A DNA stretch of 64,000 nt. Source: a virus. The stretch covers positions 64,001 to 128,000 of the IMG/VR virus record IMGVR_UViG_3300032086_003797, one strand, 5' to 3'. Both the position numbers and the translations under genes were made by a program. The notes below the pieces were generated by a model that saw nothing but the letters and a program-made list of their open reading frames with translations, made no database searches and was not told where the DNA came from. Shown piece after piece: positions 29,685-63,375 of the stretch. The first letter of the stretch is position 1. Each line of letters starts with the position of its first letter.

Positions 29685-30287
29685 ATGTTGAAAGTATTAG
29701 GGAAGTTGCCGAGGGAGTTAGTGGTCGCTGTTAGTGGTGGTCCTGATTCTATGGCTATTTTAGATTTCCTTAATAATAATCATAAGGTGACAGCATATTA
29801 TTTTGATCATGGCACAACATTCGGAGAAGAGGCGTACCATTTCCTTAAGAGCTACTGCGCAAGTAGAAAAATCCCATTTGTAACCAGCGTTTTATCAGAA
29901 TCTCGTCCAAGCGGCAAGTCACTTGAGGAACATTGGCGGGATGAACGCTATAAACGATTTCACGACTATAACCTACCCATCGTAACTGGGCATAATTTAG
30001 ACGATGTTATTGAATGGTTCCTGTTCTCATCTGTGCATGGTAAAGGAAAAGTTATTCCTTATCAAAATAAAAATGTTATCCGTCCTTTCCTATCTACCTC
30101 GAAGCAAAGCTTGATTGACTGGTGTACAAGAAAAGGTATTCCGTTTCTGACTGACCCTGGTAATAGTAACAGAAAATTTATGAGAAGTATTATCAGACAC
30201 GACATGATGCCTATCGTAGAAGAAATTAACCCAGGTATTCAAAAAACATTTAAAAAAATTGTAGAAAGCAGGTATAATAACATCTAA
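29685..30287 (+). CDS. tilS: tRNA(Ile)-lysidine synthase, N-terminal catalytic domain only
   Basis: AVSGGPDS PP-loop, R..RY, TGHNLDD..E, IRPFL, DPGN. Confidence 0.9.
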   Translation: MLKVLGKLPRELVVAVSGGPDSMAILDFLNNNHKVTAYYFDHGTTFGEEAYHFLKSYCASRKIPFVTSVLSESRPSGKSLEEHWRDERYKRFHDYNLPIVTGHNLDDVIEWFLFSSVHGKGKVIPYQNKNVIRPFLSTSKQSLIDWCTRKGIPFLTDPGNSNRKFMRSIIRHDMMPIVEEINPGIQKTFKKIVESRYNNI

Positions 30288-37376: not shown

Positions 37377-37634
37377 ATGAGCCTACTAAACAAGATAACT
37401 AAAAGTTTCTTGCTAAATGAGGACTTTAGTGCTAGCAACTATTCGTATTCATTACAAGCTATAGAAGATAATCTAAAATCTATTAGAGTTTCCTCTAAGA
37501 AAGACAAAAATCGTATATCTCTAGCTTTGGAGCAGACAAGAAAAATGAAGTCTCACCTCCGTAGGCTTGAGGAGAAAATTAACCACTTAGAAGAGCAGCT
37601 TCAGGTTTTAAACGAGGATTCAGGAGATAAGTAA
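37377..37634 (+). CDS. Small coiled-coil hypothetical protein
   Basis: ORF packing; LLNE/VLNE motifs. Confidence 0.6.
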   Translation: MSLLNKITKSFLLNEDFSASNYSYSLQAIEDNLKSIRVSSKKDKNRISLALEQTRKMKSHLRRLEEKINHLEEQLQVLNEDSGDK

Positions 37635-39649
37635 TGGGTGGTGTAGGCGGACACTTGAATCATCTTTATGATGATAGAAGTATGACTTTTGATAAGATGA
37701 TGGATATCATCGATGCCGCAAGTCAAGGAAAACTCCAAGCTGAGGAAAAAGTTGATGGACAAAATTTGTTCATCTCCTGGTCTGAGGAAAGACAGATATC
37801 TCTAGCCGCTAGAAATAAAGGAAATCTCAAACAAGGGGGCATGGACGCTGCTGGGTTAGCTACTAAATTTGCAGGTCGAGGACCTATCGAGAAAGCTTAT
37901 AATGAAGCATTTGACACATTCGATGCCGCTGTCAAAAGTATCAGCCCTGAAGATAGGGTAAAGATATTTGGTCAAGATGCTACAAAGTGGTATAACATTG
38001 AAGTTATGTCCCCAGAGAATCCCAATGTTATTCTTTATGATAAGAAGATACTAAAGATCCATTCGGACGGTCACAAGATCCTTGATGATAATAAAGCACC
38101 ACAAAATTATGATGCTGCTAGTGATGGATCTCTTCAGACATTAGATGCCAACCTAAAGAAGATGCAAGACGCTGCGAAGGGTAAAGAATTTGAAATAGCT
38201 AGAAAGGCAACACTAAAGCTAAAAGCATTGTCATCTGATAAAGCAGCAACTAGAGCTAAAACCGAGATCAATAATGCTCTTTCGTCAATCGGATTGAATA
38301 GTGATGTCTCGGTTGAGGGTTACCTCAGAAAGAGGTTATCCAATATCCTAGATGAGCAGGCTAAAGAATTACCAGAGGAAAAAAGGTCTGGTATGGTTGC
38401 TCGTATTCTGCGTTTAGAAGGTTTCCCTAATCTAACTAAGATCAAGAAGGGGTTGACACCAGAACAGAAAGAGACTGTTAGTCAGATGTCTGAGCCTGTT
38501 ATTGTCAAGCAAATGATGGCTAATGCTATTCAACCTATCGAATTAGCTATCCATGAGTTTGCTGTGGAAGTACTAAAGACAGTTCAAAGTGTTTTTATCT
38601 TAGATCCCCGAGAAGAAGTTAACAGATTACGATCAGTTCTATCCAAAACTGTGACTGACCTTGAAGCTATGGCTACCGATGGTTCTATTTCGGCAGAAGA
38701 AATGGACGCTGTTAGAATCCAACTTCGGAAGATTGGCGGCTTAGATCGTGTAACCACTAGTGCTGAGGGTTTAGTATTTGTAGTGGATGGTATGCTTTAT
38801 AAGTTCACTGGTAACTTCGCTCCTATCAATCAAGTGTTAGGTATATTGAAATATGGTAGGATCAAAACAAATGTTGCAAAAGAAAACATTCTTAGAAATT
38901 TCGATAACATTATAACTGAAGTCATCGAAACTGTTAATGAAGCAGACCCTAACGGTAAAAGAGTTGCATTTGTCCCAGGGGCATTTAAGCCTCCCCATGC
39001 TGGTCATTACCTTGGTGCTAAATCATTTGCTGAGATGGAAGACATCGATGAGGTTAGAGTACTTATCTCACCTAGCACTCGTGATGGTATCACAGTAAAT
39101 CAGTCTAAGAAAATCTGGGAATTATATATAAAGAATGACCCTGATAAGAATGTAAAGAAAATAAATCTAATTGTTCCACCCGCATCCCCAGTCAGGTATG
39201 TATACGATATGATTGAAGATAAAAAACAATTCAAGCCTGGTGATTCACTGGTGCTTGGTCAGGGTGAAAAAGAAAGCGGGAAGGCTGCTGAAAAGTTAGC
39301 TTCATTTGCAGAGCGAAAAAATCCTGGTGTTAATGTTGAATACGTTAAAACAAAGATGTATGCAAGTGGTGTCACAGGTACCCAGATGCGGGAGCTAGTA
39401 TTAGCTAACAATGAAAAGGAATTCAAAAAACATTTACCAGACTTTATCCGCAAAAATGATGATCTAGCAGACCAAGCTTGGAGTATAGCTACTGGAGTAA
39501 ATGAGTTACAAATGATCGATGATGCTATCGATGAAATGGTGACCACACATTCTGTTGGTGGATATGGGGCTCCTTTGGGCATATATACTAGCAGTAAAAA
39601 CTCAAAAAGAAAAAAGAAGAAAAAGACAACTAAATCAAAACGGAGATAG
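37634..39649 (+). CDS. Fusion: ligase-fold (KxDG, DUF6267-like) domain + cytidyltransferase-like domain
   Basis: HLNHLYD, EEKVDGQN, EGLVF, YKFTG; C-terminal PGAFKPPHAGH and VTGTQMR. Confidence 0.75.
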   Translation: MGGVGGHLNHLYDDRSMTFDKMMDIIDAASQGKLQAEEKVDGQNLFISWSEERQISLAARNKGNLKQGGMDAAGLATKFAGRGPIEKAYNEAFDTFDAAVKSISPEDRVKIFGQDATKWYNIEVMSPENPNVILYDKKILKIHSDGHKILDDNKAPQNYDAASDGSLQTLDANLKKMQDAAKGKEFEIARKATLKLKALSSDKAATRAKTEINNALSSIGLNSDVSVEGYLRKRLSNILDEQAKELPEEKRSGMVARILRLEGFPNLTKIKKGLTPEQKETVSQMSEPVIVKQMMANAIQPIELAIHEFAVEVLKTVQSVFILDPREEVNRLRSVLSKTVTDLEAMATDGSISAEEMDAVRIQLRKIGGLDRVTTSAEGLVFVVDGMLYKFTGNFAPINQVLGILKYGRIKTNVAKENILRNFDNIITEVIETVNEADPNGKRVAFVPGAFKPPHAGHYLGAKSFAEMEDIDEVRVLISPSTRDGITVNQSKKIWELYIKNDPDKNVKKINLIVPPASPVRYVYDMIEDKKQFKPGDSLVLGQGEKESGKAAEKLASFAERKNPGVNVEYVKTKMYASGVTGTQMRELVLANNEKEFKKHLPDFIRKNDDLADQAWSIATGVNELQMIDDAIDEMVTTHSVGGYGAPLGIYTSSKNSKRKKKKKTTKSKRR

Positions 39650-55170: not shown

Positions 55171-55827
55171 ATGAATACGCCTAATAGAGATATAAATTTA
55201 CATCAAAGACTATTAAAACTTTTATACGATCATAATGAAGAGCATGTTGGAAGCTGCTTTACTTGTGTGGATATAATTGATAATATTTTTAAAAACAAAA
55301 ACGAAGATGATATATTTGTACTGTCAAATGGACATGCAGCATATGCTTTATATGTCGTATTAGAGAAATATTATGACCATATTGATGCTGACGCATTAGT
55401 AGAGAAACATGGTGGTCACCCTAACTGGGATGAGGATAATCACATCTATGTATCAACTGGCAGTTTAGGCTCGGGTATTGTTATTGCAGTAGGTAGAGCA
55501 TTAGCAAATCGCAACCGTAAAGTTCATGTTATGGTTAGTGATGGAGAATGTGCTGAAGGTTCCGTATGGGAAGCATTGCGATATGTAGAAGAATATAATG
55601 TTGACAATATGGAAGTTTATGTTAACGCAAACGGCTGGGCATGTTATGATCCCGTAGATGTGGAATACTTAGAGCGACGTTGTAAAGCTTTTTTGCCAAG
55701 GATTCATTTTCATAAAACCGATGTCAACTCATATTTCCCATTTTTGAAAGATCTTGATGCACACTATTGCAAGCTTTCAGCGGAAGATTATAAACTAGGT
55801 ACGGAGATGTTGAATAATGAGCGTTAG
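55171..55827 (+). CDS. Transketolase N-terminal (ThDP-binding) subunit
   Basis: HVGS, LSNGH, STGSLG, SDGECAEGSVWEA. Confidence 0.9.
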   Translation: MNTPNRDINLHQRLLKLLYDHNEEHVGSCFTCVDIIDNIFKNKNEDDIFVLSNGHAAYALYVVLEKYYDHIDADALVEKHGGHPNWDEDNHIYVSTGSLGSGIVIAVGRALANRNRKVHVMVSDGECAEGSVWEALRYVEEYNVDNMEVYVNANGWACYDPVDVEYLERRCKAFLPRIHFHKTDVNSYFPFLKDLDAHYCKLSAEDYKLGTEMLNNER

Positions 55828-56299
55828 AAAAACATTTGTCAGTTTACTACATGAAGAAATGAAACAGAACGACAATATTGTATTTGTTGTTGGTGATTTG
55901 GGATACGGACACTTTGATGAGATCCGAGAAGAGTTCCCAGACAGGGTTATCAACCCAGGGGCGGCAGAACAGTTAATGATGGGGATGAGTATTGGCTTAG
56001 CTCAGGAGGGCAAGCTTGTAGTATGTTATTCAATGACGCCATTCACATTATATCGACCATTTGAATTTATTAGAAACTATGTTGACTATGAGAAGATTCC
56101 AGTCAAATTAATTGGTGCGGGTAGGGATAAAGATTATCTTTGGTTAGGCTGGTCACATTGGGCGACTGATGACAAGGAACATCTTAGCGGCTTCAAGAAT
56201 ATTGAAAAGCACTGGCCTGAAGACCCCGAAGATATGAAACGCTTATTTAAAGGTATCATGTATAACGGGAAACCAACTTATGTGAATTTGTCAAGGTAA
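55817..56299 (+). CDS. Transketolase pyrimidine-binding subunit (no C-terminal domain)
   Basis: GDLG, GAAEQ, RPFEFIR. Confidence 0.88.
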   Translation: MSVRKTFVSLLHEEMKQNDNIVFVVGDLGYGHFDEIREEFPDRVINPGAAEQLMMGMSIGLAQEGKLVVCYSMTPFTLYRPFEFIRNYVDYEKIPVKLIGAGRDKDYLWLGWSHWATDDKEHLSGFKNIEKHWPEDPEDMKRLFKGIMYNGKPTYVNLSR

Positions 56300-57948: not shown

Positions 57949-58587
57949 ATGTTTATAGACGACAAAAGAAAAATAATATTTGTACACAACCCAAAAGCAG
58001 CAGGGTCTTCAATTCATATACTGCTTAAGGATTTGTATGAACTTAGAGACACCGATAGGCACGACCCAGAACCACACATACACCACATGAGTTACCAACA
58101 AATCCTAAATTTAAAACCTGAATACTATGGATACTATTCATTTGCTGCTGTTAGAAATCCTTGGGCTAGATTATTATCAGGCTATATGGATTTTGTACAA
58201 AATAGAAAACATGAGTACTCTGGTTTGATACGATATGATGAGCCATTATTATCTGAGTATAAGGATTTTAAAGATTTTGTTATGAGGATTGGCGAAGGCA
58301 AATGGATAAACGATGTTCATTTCCTCCCTCAGCATGTTTATACTCATGCAGAAGATAAAGTTGTCGATATGATCCTAAGGGTAGAAAATATCAATATGGA
58401 TATTCAAGCACTTATGAATAAAATAGGATTTAAGTATTACCAGCACTTATTCGGCGCTCATTGGCAGAGACACAGATCCACTAAGCACGGACATTATACA
58501 GAGTATTACGACGAACAAAGTGCAGCTAAAGTAGTTGAATTATATGCAAAAGACATAGAGCTATTTGGGTATCAATATGGAGAATAA
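57949..58587 (+). CDS. Sulfotransferase (family 2, carbohydrate type)
   Basis: FVHNPKAAGSSI 5'-PSB loop, VRNPWARLLSGY 3'-PB, HFLPQ, YAKDIELFGY. Confidence 0.88.
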   Translation: MFIDDKRKIIFVHNPKAAGSSIHILLKDLYELRDTDRHDPEPHIHHMSYQQILNLKPEYYGYYSFAAVRNPWARLLSGYMDFVQNRKHEYSGLIRYDEPLLSEYKDFKDFVMRIGEGKWINDVHFLPQHVYTHAEDKVVDMILRVENINMDIQALMNKIGFKYYQHLFGAHWQRHRSTKHGHYTEYYDEQSAAKVVELYAKDIELFGYQYGE

Positions 58588-59452
58588 GTGCATAGTATCG
58601 CAAATACATATTCCTGATCATGACCCTCAAGGTAGTTTAGGGTTTCTAGCTAAGCAGGAGATAATTGATACAAACATACAAAGCTTAAGAAGAAACAATC
58701 CAGATGCATACATAATTTTAGTTGGTCATGGACATGAGCCTTATGACTCTACTAAAGATGTTTGTGATAAATTTATTTGGGAAGACTTGCACCCAATCGA
58801 CGGTGGCGGCACGGTAATAGGGATGCCAGCCCAATATAAGTCTGTATCGCTAGGAATAGAACACGCAAAAGAAAAAGGCTTTGATTATTGTTTGAAAACT
58901 AGAGGTGACTCTATAATAGCAAAACAAGATATTATATCATACTGCCACGACATAATAAAATCAGAAGATAAGATGATTCTCCTAACCCAGCAAACTGGCA
59001 AGGAACTATACAAATTTGGCGATTGTTTTATGTATGGAGAAATAGACCTATTGAGTTCTATATGGGATGCAGCCAACCCCCCGTTTCATGCCGATGGCTT
59101 AAGGCACACAGGCATATCGTTTGTAAAGCATTTCTCTGGTAAGGTTCCTCCTATACCATATAACCCACAAGCAATACTTTATGAAGATAAAAACTGGACA
59201 GATCTTTTGAAAGAATATTGTTCGTTTAGGGACATTGGTGAAATAGGGTTCTGTGATCTTAGGTGGAATTATAACCAGATGCAGCAAAATTGGAAAAACA
59301 ATAAACAACAAATATTAGACCTTGAATACGACTTTGAAGAAATATACTGGGGTCGAAGTAATGGATGGCACAACTTCAATAGTATGGGTCAGGTAGTAAG
59401 TCATGGTGGTATGTGTCACTGGGCATATACTCAAGCGGAGTTTTATAAATAA
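58577..59452 (+). CDS. Glycan-cluster hypothetical
   Basis: YCLKTRGD, GDCFMYG. Confidence 0.55.
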   Translation: MENKCIVSQIHIPDHDPQGSLGFLAKQEIIDTNIQSLRRNNPDAYIILVGHGHEPYDSTKDVCDKFIWEDLHPIDGGGTVIGMPAQYKSVSLGIEHAKEKGFDYCLKTRGDSIIAKQDIISYCHDIIKSEDKMILLTQQTGKELYKFGDCFMYGEIDLLSSIWDAANPPFHADGLRHTGISFVKHFSGKVPPIPYNPQAILYEDKNWTDLLKEYCSFRDIGEIGFCDLRWNYNQMQQNWKNNKQQILDLEYDFEEIYWGRSNGWHNFNSMGQVVSHGGMCHWAYTQAEFYK

Positions 59453-59453
59453 A

Positions 59454-59891
59454 ATGTTATTGATTTCACATAGAGGTAACTTGTTCGGACCTAATGAGGT
59501 TGGAGAAAATAATCCTAAAAAGATAGCTGAGTTAATTGATCGAGGTATCCATGTGGAGATCGATGTCTGGTCTATCGATAATAAAATGTACCTAGGGCAC
59601 GATAAGCCGACACATTTTGTTACCACTGATTTTTTATTACATCCAAATTTATGGTGTCATGCTAAGAACATTGAAGCACTAGAACATCTCTTAAACGTAG
59701 GGGCGCACTGCTTTTGGCACGAAACAGATTCTTACACTGTGACAAGTGATAAAATTATTTGGACATTTCCAGGTAAACAACTTACCCCAAGATCTGTTAT
59801 AGTATGTCACTCGGAAGAAGAAACCGAGGCAGTTATGAAAACAAACGCATATGGCGTCTGTAGTGATTATGTGGGGTATTACAACAAATGA
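59454..59891 (+). CDS. Minimal GDPD-like phosphodiesterase
   Basis: ISHRGN, EN, VEIDVW, LGHD, GVCSD. Confidence 0.75.
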   Translation: MLLISHRGNLFGPNEVGENNPKKIAELIDRGIHVEIDVWSIDNKMYLGHDKPTHFVTTDFLLHPNLWCHAKNIEALEHLLNVGAHCFWHETDSYTVTSDKIIWTFPGKQLTPRSVIVCHSEEETEAVMKTNAYGVCSDYVGYYNK

Positions 59892-60841
59892 AGATAGTAG
59901 CAGTAACAGGGTGCATGGGGCTGATAGGCTCCCATGTTACAAGTGAACTACTCCAGCGTGGTTATCTTGTATTGGGAATTGATAAGCTGACTTATGCAGC
60001 CAACAGTGAGGCAATGCAGACCTTCAACGACTTGCCTGGTTTCACTTTTTTGCAAAAAGATATTTGTGAGTTGGAATCTATACCTGATTGCGATTATGTT
60101 ATCAATCTGGCGGCAGAATCGCACGTTGGCAATAGTATCATTGACGGTACAGACTTTATTAGTACGAACATTAGCGGTGTGCAAAACTTGCTCAAGATTA
60201 TTCAAAATAAGCCAAGCAATGTTTGTGAGAGACCTGTGCTCCTTCACTTTAGCACCGACGAAGTATATGGAGATCTAGAGGAGGGCTCATTTACAGAAGA
60301 TAGCTCTCTAAATCCCAGCAACCCTTACTCGGCTACCAAAGCGGCAGCAGATCATTTGATAAAGTCTTGGAGCAGGACATATGGAACAGAGTATGTCATT
60401 GTCCGTCCAACAAATAACTATGGGATATTTCAATACCCAGAAAAACTTATCCCTCTATCAGTAAAGTTATTGCAAAGAGGTAAAAAAATTAGACTCCACA
60501 ATAAAGGCGAGCCTACAAGAAACTGGCTTCACGCTGCTGATACCGCAAATGCGATTATCACTATTATGGAGTCGGGTGTAAAAAATGAAATTTTCAATAT
60601 ATCTGGTGGTTTTGAACAGAAGAATATTGATACAGTAAAGAAAGTGATAGACTGTTACTTTGAGGAAAAAGTAGAAGATTATGACCAATACCTTGACTTC
60701 TCACATGAGCGTGAAGGACAAGATGTTAGATATTCGGTAGATGACAGCAAGTTAAGAAACCTAGGCTGGTCACCAAGGTTTGATTTTGATGAAGAAATAA
60801 AACATATTGTAAAATATTACAAGAAGACATTCGTATGGTAG
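59888..60841 (+). CDS. NDP-glucose 4,6-dehydratase (RmlB-like)
   Basis: GCMGLIG, DKLTYA, AAESHV, STDEVYG, YSATK, NNYG..QYPEK. Confidence 0.9.
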   Translation: MKIVAVTGCMGLIGSHVTSELLQRGYLVLGIDKLTYAANSEAMQTFNDLPGFTFLQKDICELESIPDCDYVINLAAESHVGNSIIDGTDFISTNISGVQNLLKIIQNKPSNVCERPVLLHFSTDEVYGDLEEGSFTEDSSLNPSNPYSATKAAADHLIKSWSRTYGTEYVIVRPTNNYGIFQYPEKLIPLSVKLLQRGKKIRLHNKGEPTRNWLHAADTANAIITIMESGVKNEIFNISGGFEQKNIDTVKKVIDCYFEEKVEDYDQYLDFSHEREGQDVRYSVDDSKLRNLGWSPRFDFDEEIKHIVKYYKKTFVW

Positions 60842-61041
60842 CAAAGAAAAGACACTTAGCAAAGGCGCTTAGCTGGCGAGCCGTTGGAACAATAGATACC
60901 ATGCTATTGGGTTGGCTCATATCGGGTGATCCTATGGTTGGGGTTAAAATTGGCGCAGTCGAATTGGTAACAAAAATATTTTTATATTATGCACACGAAA
61001 GAGCATGGTATAAATTCTCTAAGTTTGGGGTAAGAAAATGA
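60835..61041 (+). CDS. DUF2061-like small membrane protein
   Basis: KALSWR...YYAHERAW. Confidence 0.8.
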
Positions 61042-61985
61042 CAAACAATTTACACTTTCATAATGCAACAGTATCAACCGAAGAGAAGGTACAAAAAAAC
61101 AAACATAAGCCCGCTGTATTATGGTTTACAGGTCTTTCAGGTTCAGGTAAATCTACTTTAGCAAATGCAGTAGAAGTATTGCTATTCCGAAAAGGATACC
61201 AGACACACACCTTAGATGGTGACAACGTTAGGATGGGACTCAATAGTGACCTCGGGTTCTCCCCAGAGGATAGAAAGGAAAACATCCGAAGGATTTCGGA
61301 GGTAGCTAATCTGTTGAGACAATCTGGCACAATAGTGTGCACAGCATTTATTTCACCATACCGCAAGAGTAGAAAATTTGCAAGAGAAATAATTGGAAAA
61401 GACTTTATAGAGATATATGTAAAAGCTCCATTAGAAACGTGTGAGGCTAGAGACCCTAAGGGATTATACAAAAAAGCTCGAAGCGGCGAAATCCCTAATT
61501 TTACTGGGATTAGTGCTCCCTATGAAGAGCCTAGAAGTCCAGAAATCATTGTGAACACAGCAGAGTTTAGCGTAGAAGAATGTGCTAATCACATTGTTGA
61601 GCACCTAGAGGAGAGTGGCTATTTTTCTACTATAAATGAAGTCAACGTACTGGACAAAAAAAGAACTATTGCGATTGATTTCGATGGTGTGATACATAGA
61701 TACAGTCAGGGCTTCAAGGGTCTAATGAATGCCTATGATGATCCAATGGATGGTGCAGAAGCAGCATTTGAGGTACTGAAAGGCGCAGGTAAAAGGCTGG
61801 TTATCTTGTCTTCCCGCCCATCTTCAGTAATAGAAAGCTGGCTAGAAGAAAGAGGCTTAAAGAAATACTTTGATGAAGTATCCAATTTTAAGATTCCAGC
61901 TAACACATATATCGATGATCGAGCATATAAATTTAGAAATTGGACAGATACAGTTAGAGATCTACTAGAAGGGGAAGATCGATGA
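61038..61985 (+). CDS. cysC: Adenylyl-sulfate (APS) kinase fused to HAD-like phosphatase
   Basis: [35 protein letters not shown]; C-terminal IDFDGVI..LSSR..IDDRA. Confidence 0.92.
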
Positions 61986-62383
61986 ATAATAGAAGAGCAA
62001 TGTTTATTGGCAGGTGGCAACCATTTCATAACGGGCATAAATGGCTTATGTCACAAAAACTTGATGAGGGTCTGCCTATTTTAATTTGTGTTAGAGATAT
62101 TCCACCCGACGAGAAAAATCCCTTTACCACAGAGCAGACTGTAAAGATGCTGGAAAAAGCATATGAAGATCACGATGTTGTCGTGATGACTATTCCAGAT
62201 ATTGATTCTGTAAACTACGGGCGGGGTGTTGGGTATGGTATTATTGAACATGTACCACCTAAAGATGTTGGCTTTATATCAGCAACTGACATTAGAAATA
62301 AAATCAAAGAAGGCGATGATTCATGGAAGCAAAATGTTGATGAAAAGATTCACGACCTTGTAGTAAAATACCTTAGCGAGTAA
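61982..62383 (+). CDS. Small HxGH nucleotidyltransferase (cytidyltransferase-like)
   Basis: [28 protein letters not shown]. Confidence 0.85.
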
Positions 62384-62385
62384 AA

Positions 62386-63375
62386 ATGTTACTAATAACT
62401 TATGGCACCAGACCCGAGTACATAAAAGTTCTTCCTGTAATAAATGAAATGAAAAAACGGTCTATACCGTATAAAACCTTCTTCACAGGACAACATACTG
62501 ATTTATTGAAAAAGGCAAGCAAGCCAGACCATATATTAGAAATAGTTGATAATGGTAACCGACTAGATTCAATTATACAATCAATATTAAACAAAGAAGA
62601 AATATTTGTCGATATAACTTGTGTGATGGTACAGGGTGACACTACGTCTGCATTTGCAACCGCCCTAGCAGCTTTTCATAGGAAGATACCTGTGGCTCAC
62701 CTGGAGGCAGGGTTACGGACATTTGATAAATATAGTCCATATCCAGAAGAGTTTAATAGGTGTGCTATTTCTGCTCTTGCGGAAATTCATCTATGCCCAA
62801 CAGATACATCAGCCGATAATCTTAAAAAAGAAGGACGCAAAAATGTTTATGTAGTTGGTAATACTGTTTTGGATAATTTATCTAACGTGGTTACGATGAA
62901 AACAAATAAGGTTGTTGTTACTCTTCATCGCCGTGAAAAACTAGATGAAATACAAAATTGGTTTAAAGTAGTAAATGATCTGGCTAAAAAACATAAGAAC
63001 CTAGACTTTATATTACCTATCCACCCCAATCCAGAAGTCAAAAAACATGCTAATATTTTATCCCATGTAAATGTTATTGATGCACTGGGGCACAAGGAGT
63101 TTATAGATCAGCTTTCAGCTTGTGCTTTTATAATAACCGATAGCGGAGGAGTTCAAGAGGAGGCTGCCTTCCTCAAGAAGCCATGTATTGTTTGCCGTGA
63201 CTTTACTGAAAGAGTGGAGGGGCTAAACACATTTTCAGTCCTCTGTAAGGAACCGAAGTCTTTAGAAAACTTGGTAGACACTTGGGCAACTAAGGTAGAT
63301 TTGTCTAATCAAACTTGCCCTTATGGCGACGGGCAATCATCGAAATATATTTGTGATATAATAAACAATATTTAA
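62386..63375 (+). CDS. wecB: UDP-N-acetylglucosamine 2-epimerase (non-hydrolysing)
   Basis: GTRPE, TGQH, QGDT, HLEAGLR, PEE, TDSGGVQEEA, PYGDG. Confidence 0.93.
   Translation: MLLITYGTRPEYIKVLPVINEMKKRSIPYKTFFTGQHTDLLKKASKPDHILEIVDNGNRLDSIIQSILNKEEIFVDITCVMVQGDTTSAFATALAAFHRKIPVAHLEAGLRTFDKYSPYPEEFNRCAISALAEIHLCPTDTSADNLKKEGRKNVYVVGNTVLDNLSNVVTMKTNKVVVTLHRREKLDEIQNWFKVVNDLAKKHKNLDFILPIHPNPEVKKHANILSHVNVIDALGHKEFIDQLSACAFIITDSGGVQEEAAFLKKPCIVCRDFTERVEGLNTFSVLCKEPKSLENLVDTWATKVDLSNQTCPYGDGQSSKYICDIINNI

Follow-up and report, generated by a model that had tools for sequence, protein, structure and literature searches.

A compact HxGH nucleotidyltransferase encoded next to a phage APS kinase may represent a third type of ATP sulfurylase

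ATP sulfurylases carry out the first step of sulfate use, a reaction that is thermodynamically very unfavorable when unaided. The heterodimeric CysD/CysN couples this reaction to GTP hydrolysis, and Sat, also found as the sulfurylase domain of PAPS synthases (PF01747), functions without a GTPase partner. The nucleotide PAP is acted on by CysQ, a 3'(2'),5'-bisphosphate nucleotidase of the inositol monophosphatase family (Inositol_P fold) that occupies equivalent PAPS operons in Flavobacteria. Here we describe a phage locus in which an HxGH nucleotidyltransferase, NT133, is encoded beside an APS kinase (CysC). The NT133 family may be an unrecognized third type of ATP sulfurylase; in the public database records and literature examined, we found no name for such a function.

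The locus lies in a 64,000-nucleotide stretch (the window) of IMG/VR virus record IMGVR_UViG_3300032086_003797 (Table 1). All open reading frames named in the original prediction were found, and its sulfotransferase, DUF2061-like protein, APS kinase, and HxGH nucleotidyltransferase match Pfam families above cut-off. The DUF2061, CysC–HAD, and NT133 genes form a translationally coupled run, as had been described, with a common ATGA at both the DUF2061/CysC and the CysC–HAD/NT133 junctions. The RmlB-like stop overlaps the DUF2061 start by 7 nt, and 2 nt separate the NT133 stop from the WecB start. The 20 kb around the module is indeed a glycan island, containing PhoH, RpiB-like, DegT, PfkB, split transketolase, GT1/GT2, GNAT, RmlB-like, and WecB-like genes. 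The reported lack of Sat and CysD in the window extends to the whole 174,625-bp virus record (estimated 95% complete), in which neither Sat (PF01747) nor CysD (PF01507) was found above cut-off; the sole sub-threshold PF01747 match is NT133 itself.

Table 1. Features of the phage sulfation locus, in window positions
Feature	Position	Strand	Basis
Sulfotransferase, Sulfotransfer_2 family, 212 aa	57949..58587	+	PF03567, E 3.6e-20, 73.6 bits vs cut-off 22
Two genes, 295 aa + 162 aa, between sulfotransferase and RmlB-like gene	58565..59891	+	function unknown
RmlB-like NDP-sugar 4,6-dehydratase	59888..60841	+	PF16363, 8.1e-57
DUF2061 small predicted membrane protein, 68 aa	60835..61041	+	PF09834, E 3e-21
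APS kinase (CysC) domain, residues ~1-200 of 315-aa fusion	61038..61637	+	PF01583, E 1.6e-67
Capless HAD phosphatase domain, fused to CysC	61638..61985	+	motifs, fold, phrog_1238
NT133, 133-aa HxGH nucleotidyltransferase	61982..62383	+	PF01467 CTP_transf_like, 31.1 bits vs cut-off 21
WecB-like UDP-GlcNAc 2-epimerase, final gene in run	62386..63375	+	PF02350, 8.6e-77

The sulfotransferase, located 2.2 kb upstream of the coupled run, is the predicted PAPS consumer. It also matches phrog_3347 'galactose-3-O-sulfotransferase' (7.8e-19), and orthologues with 67–83% identity occupy the equivalent position in related phage loci L008–L010. A Pfam search returned no match for the 295-aa and 162-aa genes; the latter resembles phrog_34507 (function unknown; 1.6e-21), and both are kept in phage loci L007–L010. 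On TIGR01181 the RmlB-like gene scores 306.8 bits, under the 365 cut-off, and the WecB-like gene reaches 272 bits on TIGR00236 (cut-off 210). The PF01583 match spans residues 25–173 of the open reading frame at 61038–61985, and this kinase scores well above cut-off on both TIGR00455 (266.7 bits vs 138.7) and NF003013 (274 bits vs 163).

NT133 carries a 17-residue segment and ISATDIR, and across its family the catalytic HxGH histidines, R11, and ISxTxxR are invariant or nearly so; R38 and R81 are family-specific invariant residues. We compared an AF2 model of NT133 (pLDDT 95.8) with known structures. Sat catalytic domains can be overlaid on NT133 along its whole length (1v47_B, Z 10.4, rmsd 2.8, 126 aligned), but NMNAT (1f9a_A, Z 14.3, rmsd 2.5, 127 aligned) and PPAT (4nah_A, Z 13.8, rmsd 2.7, 127 aligned) are closer, and these two families are also the nearest relatives by sequence. 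Sulfurylase chemistry is plausible given the predicted HxGH/ISxTxxR adenylyltransferase fold and the full-length Sat superposition. We rejected the idea that NT133 is a cut-down Sat: it fails the Sat model PF01747 (17.3 bits vs 24.3 needed), a profile–profile comparison with Sat reaches no more than 56% probability, in the C-terminal ISAT/LSGT part, and the closest PDB profile is archaeal NMNAT/NadM (E 2.5e-15). Relative to NMNAT, about 30 residues are missing between profile positions 82 and 86.

The genomic associations of NT133 point to sulfate activation. Of 31 IMG/VR phage loci with an NT133 homologue, 29 place an APS kinase immediately next to it, on the upstream side in some cases and on the downstream side in the rest; Pfam verified this neighbor for 11 of the 12 diverse loci checked. 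Of the 150 best representatives of the family's 50%-identity clusters, 52 are fused to APS kinase, 39 as APS kinase–NT133 and 13 as NT133–APS kinase; the two orders require at least two independent fusion events. DUF2061–APS kinase fusions also occur (P0368, P0371, P0373, P0379, and phage L133/L134). The trio of kinase, NT133, and sulfotransferase recurs with different sulfotransferase families, namely PF03567 in the window and L032, PF13469/PF00685 in L011-type loci, and PF13469 in L035, where the kinase-like gene is short. Neither Sat nor CysD was found above cut-off in any of 24 phage records with NT133.

Bacterial operons place NT133 in similar company. A marine Flavobacteriales operon reads cysC–NT133–unknown–cysQ (Inositol_P)–flippase-like–sulfotransferase, and in Nitrospiraceae NT133 lies directly downstream of cysH. 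In cultured Salegentibacter the order is cysQ–DUF2061–cysC–cysD–cysN, which puts CysDN in the slot held elsewhere by NT133. Dadabacteria homologues (~63% identity) are single genes in a housekeeping context, with no glycan genes nearby and no linkage to cysC.

The distribution of NT133 across genomes is complementary to that of both known sulfurylases. In 114 Dadabacteria genomes (the phylum of genome G002), each at least 80% complete, NT133 occurs in 76, Sat in 18, and CysD in 13, with no overlap (Fisher p = 1.6e-21, although the groups are clade-structured). Among 151 Flavobacteriales genomes, CysD is found in 0 of 6 with NT133 and in 104 of 145 others (p = 7e-4), and four further NT133-positive genomes also have none. 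These phyletic patterns follow clades and thus reflect few independent events. Five complete NT133-bearing Dadabacteria chromosomes encode CysC, CysH, and sulfite reductase, and none has Sat, CysD, or AprA. NT133 co-occurs with Sat–CysC or CysD in 4 of 24 genomes. The co-occurrence of homologues with cysC, whose lack would have refuted the original prediction, is clear: all 24 NT133-positive genomes tested carry CysC, as do 72 of the 76 Dadabacteria. In entire bacterial lineages, relatives of NT133 seem to stand in for both known ATP sulfurylases, which raises the possibility of a third enzyme family. Comparative genomics strongly supports the assignment of NT133 as a predicted sulfate adenylyltransferase feeding the adjacent APS kinase. 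The fusions, the arrangement of neighboring genes, the company NT133 keeps in operons, and its complementary distribution lend strong support to the proposed supply of APS by a small sulfurylase; the implied descent from Sat is not retained.

We considered other activities for NT133. Fusion and adjacency indicate only that NT133 and the kinase perform linked steps, so NT133 could adenylylate a small substrate other than sulfate (for example another oxyanion, or a small phosphorylated or phosphonate compound), with the CysC-family kinase 3'-phosphorylating the adenylate to a PAPS-like donor. This would follow the logic of PPAT and dephospho-CoA kinase, and the fold is as near PPAT as NMNAT; the partner kinases of L035 and a Xylella phage fusion are also short and divergent (32–39 bits on PF01583). 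We nevertheless find it unlikely, as the scores of the window kinase and of most others paired with NT133 are those of true APS kinases (Pfam E 1e-41 to 1e-72) and the operon partners CysQ, CysH, and sulfotransferases all use PAPS or PAP. The exclusivity with Sat and CysD, together with a CysC–CysH–sulfite reductase pathway missing only its sulfurylase, likewise points to sulfate. A regulatory or accessory role in APS kinase, such as adenine nucleotide binding or proofreading, would fit the fusions too, with APS drawn from host Sat or CysDN; fungal ATP sulfurylase, which has an APS-kinase-like regulatory domain, offers a precedent. The conservation of the HxGH histidines, R11, and ISxTxxR and the lack of another APS source in complete NT133 genomes make such a role very improbable.

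Two further readings separate NT133 from sulfate altogether. Its position in a glycan island, flanked by RmlB-like and WecB-like genes, would suit a sugar- or polyol-phosphate nucleotidyltransferase (TagD-, HldC-, or RfaE-like) making a glycan precursor, and cytidylyltransferases of 120–130 aa are among its fold matches. Those folds match far worse than NMNAT, PPAT, or Sat (2b7l_A, Z 6.7, rmsd 3.2, 90 aligned; 3glv_B, Z 7.2, rmsd 3.1, 91 aligned; 5x9q_A, Z 6.3, rmsd 3.4, 93 aligned), the Dadabacteria homologues lack glycan neighbors, and NT133 keeps to cysC regardless of surrounding glycan genes, rendering this assignment decidedly doubtful. A compact NMN/NaMN adenylyltransferase of the phage NadM/NatV type, raising NAD supply during infection, is extremely improbable. 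Archaeal NMNAT is the top NCBIfam match (NF002243, 2.7e-15), NMNATs 1f9a and 1ej2 are the top PDB matches, many large phages encode NadM-type enzymes, and one JGI record calls a homologue NMNAT. However, NT133 scores far under the family cut-offs (56 vs 127; 46 vs 181) over residues 5–76 only, lacks the NMNAT residues that follow the third strand and precede the C-terminal ISxT part, and would be superfluous in either an NMNAT or a PPAT role, since all 24 NT133 genomes tested have a canonical NadD above cut-off and CoaD is present in 5 of 5. An NAD role also accounts for neither the APS kinase fusions nor the exclusivity with Sat and CysD.

The HAD domain is part of the sulfation module and its sole phosphatase: it is either fused to CysC or encoded separately after NT133 (phage L133/L134). 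Pfam matches to this domain fall slightly under cut-off, but it resembles phrog_1238 (9.8e-15), its four motifs (DFDGV, S-x-R, K, DD) show no variation among 25 aligned homologues, and its AF2 model (pLDDT 90) has the fold of HAD hydrolases (best match 3mc1_B, Z 11.9, rmsd 2.1, 106 aligned). Sequence and fold fit a PAP phosphatase, a pyrophosphatase, or another phosphatase alike. HAD-type pyrophosphatases also exist, and one (3qu2_A) matches with Z 9.4, rmsd 3.0, and 107 aligned. The domain is a candidate PAP 3'-phosphatase or pyrophosphatase. The proposal of a CysQ analogue draws circumstantial support from its travelling with the module and from CysQ in the corresponding Flavobacteria operons; PAP specificity does not follow from sequence or fold, and CysQ has an unrelated fold.

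Taken together, we consider it probable that an NT133 sulfurylase, CysC, and the sulfotransferase act in sequence, with HAD clearing a by-product. The ~130-residue NT133 family would have descended from NMNAT-type HxGH nucleotidyltransferases with loss of the nicotinamide-nucleotide-binding segment. NT133 most likely converts ATP and sulfate to APS and PPi independently of GTP; no GTPase partner is present. The coupled upstream APS kinase would convert APS to PAPS, pulling the unfavorable sulfurylase step forward, and the island sulfotransferase would spend PAPS on sulfating a phage-directed glycan. The CysC-fused HAD probably clears an inhibitory by-product, which would be PPi or, by analogy with CysQ, PAP.

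Compared with known systems, NT133 shares with Sat the HxxH nucleotidyltransferase superfamily (as HNGH), the predicted GTP-independent reaction, and fusion with APS kinase at either end, as in PAPS synthases and Sat–CysC proteins; PAPSS1 aligns less closely (1x6v_B, Z 7.4, rmsd 2.7, 131 aligned). Sat, however, has ~390 residues or more, an N-terminal PUA-like domain, and a GRDHAG-type strand without an aligned counterpart in NT133, whose evolutionary neighbors are NMNATs. CysD/CysN occupies the same Flavobacteria operon slot beside cysQ–DUF2061–cysC and is mutually exclusive with NT133, but CysD has an unrelated PAPS_reduct-type ATP pyrophosphatase fold. The nearest sequence and structure kin are archaeal NMNAT and the adenylyltransferase domain of bacterial NadM (TIGR01527, NF002243; 1f9a, 1ej2, 2qjo), which share GRxQPFHxGH, NPFT, ISxTxIR, and a C-terminal GDxxW helix; after the third strand, NT133 has a family-specific NYGRGVGY loop in place of the deleted residues, and its genomic associations are with sulfate activation rather than NAD metabolism. 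PPAT (CoaD) and dephospho-CoA kinase, which eukaryotic CoA synthase combines in a single fused protein, follow the same two-step logic as NT133 and CysC, in which an HxGH adenylyltransferase is followed by a P-loop kinase acting on the adenylate 3'-OH; the partner is CoaE in one case and an APS kinase family member in the other, and CoaD is present separately in the NT133 genomes tested.

All open reading frames named in the original prediction were found as described (see table) in the virus record, which spans 174,625 bp, has an estimated completeness of 95%, and contains the window as bases 64001-128000. The sulfation module lies at the end of a ~20-kb glycan island that carries PhoH, RpiB-like, DegT, PfkB, split transketolase, GT1/GT2, GNAT, WavE-like, methyltransferase, RmlB-like, and WecB-like genes. 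The RmlB and DUF2061 genes overlap by 7 nt, ATGA is common to both the DUF2061/cysC and the cysC-HAD/NT133 junctions, and wecB starts 2 nt after the stop codon of NT133, the HxGH nucleotidyltransferase; we predict that the module genes are translationally coupled. The GxxGxGKST and DGD..R motifs of the APS kinase (CysC) are invariant, and the fusion gene is predicted to encode a true APS kinase. The claim that the window lacks the known ATP sulfurylases Sat (PF01747) and CysD (PF01507) holds above cut-off for the whole 174,625-bp virus genome, in which the sole faint PF01747 match is NT133 itself (12.1 bits in the genome search).

Features of the window and of related loci
Feature	Coordinates	Evidence
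Large ORF, 418 aa	10007-11263	
200-aa ORF	29685-30287	weak PAPS_reduct-type match, 13 bits, below cut-off
Large ORF, 786 aa	31553-33913	
671-aa ORF	37634-39649	weak HxGH nucleotidyltransferase match at 38972-39070, 12.7 bits, below cut-off
Split transketolase-like pair	55171-56299	Transketolase_N, then Transket_pyr
Sulfotransfer_2 protein	57949-58587	PF03567, E 3.6e-20, 73.6 bits vs cut-off 22, profile positions 3-252 of 252
DUF2061, 68 aa	60835-61041	PF09834, 3e-21, 76 bits vs 23.1
APS kinase (CysC) domain	61038-61637 of ORF 61038-61985	PF01583, E 1.6e-67; TIGR00455, 266.7 bits vs 138.7; NF003013, 274 vs 163
HAD domain	61638-61985	Pfam matches just under cut-off, 25.2 vs 26.4
NT133, 133 aa	61982-62383 (+)	PF01467, 31.1 bits vs 21; TIGR00125, 32.6 vs 27.7
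Kinase-like/NT133-like fusion, 246 aa, Xylella phage Bacata (LR743524.1)	L005:3590-4330	kinase part 32 bits; NT133 part ~35% identity
Gene between NT133 and cysQ, 235 aa, marine Flavobacteriales	L114:8502-9209	conserved; no Pfam family
DUF2061, further locus	L120:6001-6459	
DUF2061-APS kinase fusion, phage	L133:3872-4603	

The split transketolase-like pair shares the island with a PfkB kinase, an RpiB-like isomerase, and a SnoaL-like protein; together they suggest an unusual pathway for branched or higher-carbon sugars. A near-identical DNA search of the module against 50,697 phage records returned no match, and tblastn with the two large window ORFs likewise found nothing among 50,697 deposited phage genomes, which places the phage far from those in culture. 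The window CysC is nearest to the CysC proteins of marine Flavobacteriales (63–66% identity), which is a weak hint of a Bacteroidota host.

NT133 has 2,474 relatives at E ≤ 1e-3 in a 90%-clustered metagenome collection (marine and other) and 1,245 representatives at E ≤ 1e-3, 430 of them at E ≤ 1e-10, in a 50%-clustered library. Source records call these proteins "cytidyltransferase-like", "hypothetical", "NMN adenylyltransferase", or, for some, "adenylylsulfate kinase", and none of the records bears a sulfurylase name. Conserved in the family alignment are G10-R11-x-x-P14-x-H16-x-G-H19, R38-D39, N46-P47, D73, and I-S100-A-T-x-I104-R105, together with a family-specific loop, NYG80-R81-G-V-G84-Y; H16, H19, S100, and R105 vary little or not at all. 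The profile score, the HxGH and ISxTxxR motifs, and a Rossmann-like nucleotidyltransferase fold place NT133 in the HxGH superfamily (PF01467, CTP_transf_like).

An AlphaFold model generated from the family alignment (pLDDT 95.8) comprises a single domain of 133 aa. NMNAT, PPAT, and Sat, the comparisons suggested in the original prediction, all superpose on this model, with the NMNAT of M. jannaschii (1f9a_A, Z 14.3, rmsd 2.5, 127 aligned) and PPAT (4nah_A, Z 13.8, rmsd 2.7, 127 aligned) scoring above the Sat of T. thermophilus (1v47_B, Z 10.4, rmsd 2.8, 126 aligned). NadM (2qjo_A, Z 12.5, rmsd 3.0, 129 aligned), the Sat-CysC protein of Aquifex (2gks_B, Z 8.6, rmsd 3.2, 126 aligned), and human PAPSS1 (1x6v_B, Z 7.4, rmsd 2.7, 131 aligned) also match. 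The superposed Sat catalytic domains cover the whole length of NT133, in agreement with Foldseek. Foldseek and a second fold search confirm the superfamily and do not separate the substrate classes; a PDB-sequence profile search ranks NMNAT first (2.5e-15).

NT133 was compared with three established families, archaeal NMNAT/NadM, Sat, and CysD/CysN, and fell outside each by model score, length, or fold. The archaeal NMNAT/NadM models TIGR01527 and NF002243 give 46.4 bits against a required 181.2 and 56.4 against 127, respectively, and cover only residues 5–76. About 30 NMNAT residues are absent (1f9a chain residues 78–108, which follow the third strand and precede the C-terminal ISxT element), a segment that we take, from NMNAT structures, to contribute to the nicotinamide-nucleotide site. 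The Sat model PF01747 gives 17.3 bits against 24.3 (E 0.0032) over residues 13–71 only, and a Sat protein has an N-terminal PUA-like domain and about 390 aa in total, compared with the one domain of NT133. Alignment of the family to 10 Sat catalytic domains with hhalign yielded a weak match (probability 56%) in the C-terminal part only, too little for placing sulfate-binding residues. In comparison with the Sat motif QxRNPxHxxH, NT133 carries H16-N-G-H19, and its YGRGVGY loop is aligned to the GRDHAG strand of Sat by neither hhalign nor topology. By the criterion of TIGR02039 plus a CysN GTPase, CysD/CysN is also rejected, as the virus genome has no CysD-like gene above cut-off and the NT133 fold differs. 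Because NT133 fails the NMNAT and Sat models and lacks the NMNAT segment, it is a separate and shortened branch of the NMNAT-type adenylyltransferases and not a truncated Sat. Of the original view of NT133 as a stripped-down ATP sulfurylase, the sulfurylase role is favored by context and distribution; derivation from Sat is not, with NMNAT the nearest relative and the Sat model failed.

The genetic linkage of NT133 to APS kinase is tight. An APS-kinase gene directly adjoins the NT133 homologue, upstream in some cases and downstream in others, in 29 of 31 IMG/VR loci (homologues at 42–98% identity), and several of these loci consist of one fused ORF. Among the best 150 of the 50%-identity representatives, an HMM domain census found 39 CysC-NT133 and 13 NT133-CysC fusions, and Pfam confirms examples of both orders (APS_kinase E 1e-41 to 1e-69). 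The opposite domain orders imply at least two independent fusion events. This count stays at at least two because a FastTree phylogeny of 119 NT133 domains is poorly resolved, with parsimony giving 26 changes on an unsupported topology and supported branches forcing only 2 per orientation. A predicted complex of the CysC domain with NT133 scored 0.00 and was counted neither for nor against.

More distant arrangements were also seen. In cultured Salvo-like siphophages of Xylella, Xanthomonas, and Stenotrophomonas, a short APS-kinase-like P-loop domain and a distant NT133 relative are joined in one 246-aa protein; it is annotated "kinase" or "adenylylsulfate kinase", and its gene adjoins a COG3236-type gene. 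Two homologues on phage contigs (P0126 and P0171, loci L121 and L122) carry an N-terminal extension of ~240 aa that is rich in Cys, repeats the motifs CxCxCG...SCGC and CxxCN, and looks like an HNH endonuclease. No cysC lies near these two homologues in either locus, and the extension may stem from fusion with a mobile element or from read-through in gene calling.

The trio of NT133, CysC, and a sulfotransferase recurs with unrelated sulfotransferase families and varied glycan genes. Phages of one type (L011) combine PIG-L, formyltransferase, NeuB, GT2, a PF13469/PF00685 sulfotransferase, epimerase, and UGDH genes with NT133 and CysC. In another locus (L035), NT133 is accompanied by a short APS-kinase-like gene and a PF13469 sulfotransferase, and in a third (L032) a PF03567 sulfotransferase lies near NT133. 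Small-genome marine Flavobacteriales have an operon of cysC, NT133, a gene without assigned function, cysQ (Inositol_P), a Wzx-like flippase gene, and a sulfotransferase gene. Equivalents of the gene between NT133 and cysQ are present in two further loci (L109 and L115). In Nitrospiraceae, cysH (PAPS reductase) is directly upstream of NT133.

We then asked which sulfurylase accompanies NT133 across genomes. Homologues of ~60% identity occurred in 208 places of a one-genome-per-species scan with a query from a 12-sequence alignment. The best 80 of these loci are mostly in Dadabacteria/Thermodesulfobacteriota MAGs, with 22 on records titled "chromosome"; the others are in Flavobacteriales, Saprospiraceae, Chitinophagales, Nitrospiraceae, and Pyrinomonadaceae. 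All 24 NT133-positive genomes examined contain CysC, and all 24 contain NadD above cut-off; Sat is found in 3/24, always as a Sat-CysC fusion, and CysD in 1/24. The 24 NT133-bearing phage records, including records estimated to be 98% and 100% complete, have no Sat or CysD above cut-off. The co-occurrence with cysC in the absence of sat/cysD that the original prediction proposed as a check is seen in phage loci and in most of these bacterial genomes.

Among 114 genomes of the phylum Dadabacteria that are at least 80% complete, NT133 is found in 76, Sat in 18, and CysD in 13, and no genome has NT133 together with Sat or CysD. Sat/CysD accordingly occurs in 0/76 NT133-positive genomes versus 31/38 others (Fisher p = 1.6e-21, a value overstated because the three groups are evidently clades), and CysC in 72/76 versus 17/38 (p = 3.9e-9, likewise overstated by clade structure). 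In a sample of 151 Flavobacteriales genomes, 6 are NT133-positive, with CysD in 0/6 compared to 104/145 others (p = 7e-4); the four newly identified NT133-positive genomes likewise have no Sat and have cysC adjoining NT133. The Flavobacteriales are an independent lineage that repeats the exclusion of CysD by NT133, and the phyletic signal as a whole comes from few independent lineages. Five complete Dadabacteria chromosomes encode CysC, a CysH-sized PAPS reductase, sulfite reductase, and CoaD, and none encodes Sat, CysD, or AprA, the last being to our knowledge the only other route to APS. With the remaining enzymes present, the assimilatory pathway in these Dadabacteria appears complete save for a sulfurylase, and NT133 is a conserved, otherwise unexplained predicted adenylyltransferase that tracks the sulfurylase-less pathway.

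NT133 occurs beside a canonical sulfurylase in four genomes. A Pyrinomonadaceae genome (G001) has a CysC-NT133 fusion and a Sat-CysC fusion, two Nitrospiraceae genomes (G014 and G015) have a stand-alone NT133 adjoining cysH as well as a Sat-CysC fusion, and a Chitinophagales genome (G022) has a CysC-NT133 fusion and CysD. These pairs suggest that two sulfate-activation systems run in parallel, for example one for assimilation and one for sulfation.

Judged from genomic context and phyletic pattern, NT133 is quite probably a sulfate adenylyltransferase (ATP + sulfate → APS + PPi). The predicted scaffold is that of an HxGH/ISxTxxR adenylyltransferase whose catalytic motifs are intact, and the gene is tightly linked to APS kinase and accompanied by genes for enzymes that use PAPS. 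MgATP would be bound through the HxGH and ISxTxxR elements, as in relatives, and the shortened pocket would position sulfate for attack on the α-phosphate, yielding APS and PPi; the family-specific invariant residues R38 and R81 may contribute to the sulfate pocket. The coupled APS kinase would draw the unfavorable formation of APS forward, perhaps helped by removal of PPi or PAP by the HAD domain, after which the sulfotransferase would sulfate the glycan made by the island. It also seems fairly likely that the family is a third class of ATP sulfurylase, the smallest (~130 aa), GTP-independent, and of NMNAT-like origin. In most Dadabacteria, and in marine Flavobacteriales with streamlined genomes, such an enzyme would be the only sulfate activator for assimilatory reduction, and large marine phages would have mobilized it along with CysC, DUF2061, and HAD as a transferable PAPS-producing unit for sulfating glycans.

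The domain C-terminal to CysC is assigned to the HAD phosphatase superfamily by its motifs and model. Motifs I (DxDxV/T), II (S/T), III (K), and IV (DD) are present, with D20, D22, S64, K91, D99, and D100 invariant in 25 homologues, and the model is a confident capless HAD fold (3mc1_B, Z 11.9, rmsd 2.1, 106 aligned; 2obb_A, Z 11.5, rmsd 2.7, 101 aligned). Fusion of HAD to CysC is seen in the window and five other loci (L009, L010, L018, L019, and L023); in two phage loci (L133 and L134) it is a separate gene directly after NT133, and CysC is fused to DUF2061 instead. Its absence from close relatives such as L007 and L008 indicates that HAD is accessory to the module.

The HAD domain was originally proposed to be a CysQ-analogous PAP phosphatase. 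Its position in the phage module does mirror that of cysQ in bacterial operons, but CysQ family and fold are rejected, as there is no PF00459 (Inositol_P) match and the fold is HAD. Activity as a PAP/PAPS 3′-phosphatase falls a little short of an even chance. The fold and family matches are generic (uncharacterized capless HADs, MDP-1, a deoxyribonucleotidase-like protein, T4 PNK phosphatase, and a HAD pyrophosphatase) and do not separate this activity from that of a pyrophosphatase, which would be an equally logical role, although we consider it unlikely; some other substrate is possible, if doubtful.

DUF2061 is described by Pfam as a small predicted membrane protein (PF09834). It is fused to APS kinase in P0368, P0371, P0373, and P0379 and in the phage loci L133 and L134, and Salegentibacter has a tandem DUF2061 between cysQ and cysC-cysD-cysN. 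DUF2061 is consistently tied to cysC, by coupling in the window and by fusion elsewhere, and may be an unrecognized component of sulfate activation.

If the assignment of NT133 as a sulfurylase is correct, it would close an apparent pathway hole in genomes with CysC, CysH, and sulfite reductase and no sulfurylase; without it, such genomes would probably be judged incapable of sulfate assimilation. Metabolic reconstructions would be affected for Dadabacteria, marine Flavobacteriales, and others, and phage cysC would be reread as part of a self-contained PAPS supply for glycan-island sulfotransferases. NT133 would also illustrate clearly how an NMNAT-type scaffold can switch substrate through loss of a binding segment, and, if functional, the NT133-CysC pair (~310 aa) would give biotechnology a very small PAPS synthase for enzymatic sulfation.

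Two non-homologous sulfate-activating enzymes, Sat and CysDN, have been described (PMC6286981). For phage cysC, an auxiliary role in assimilatory sulfate reduction has been reported, in an account that mentions neither a partner sulfurylase nor a sulfotransferase (PMC10914622). A sulfurylase function for the NT133 family was not found in curated NCBIfam/Pfam families, database names, or the openly accessible literature; the family is undescribed in open work on new, alternative, or missing ATP sulfurylases, DUF2061 and sulfate, Dadabacteria sulfate activation, and phage cysC with sulfotransferases. A corresponding locus occurs in cultured Salegentibacter, where cysQ, DUF2061, cysC, cysD, and cysN lie within a polysaccharide cluster with a sulfotransferase and the canonical sulfurylase fills the slot held elsewhere by NT133. 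A module for PAPS synthesis and sulfation is a known kind of system, in which the enzyme family for the first step would be new.
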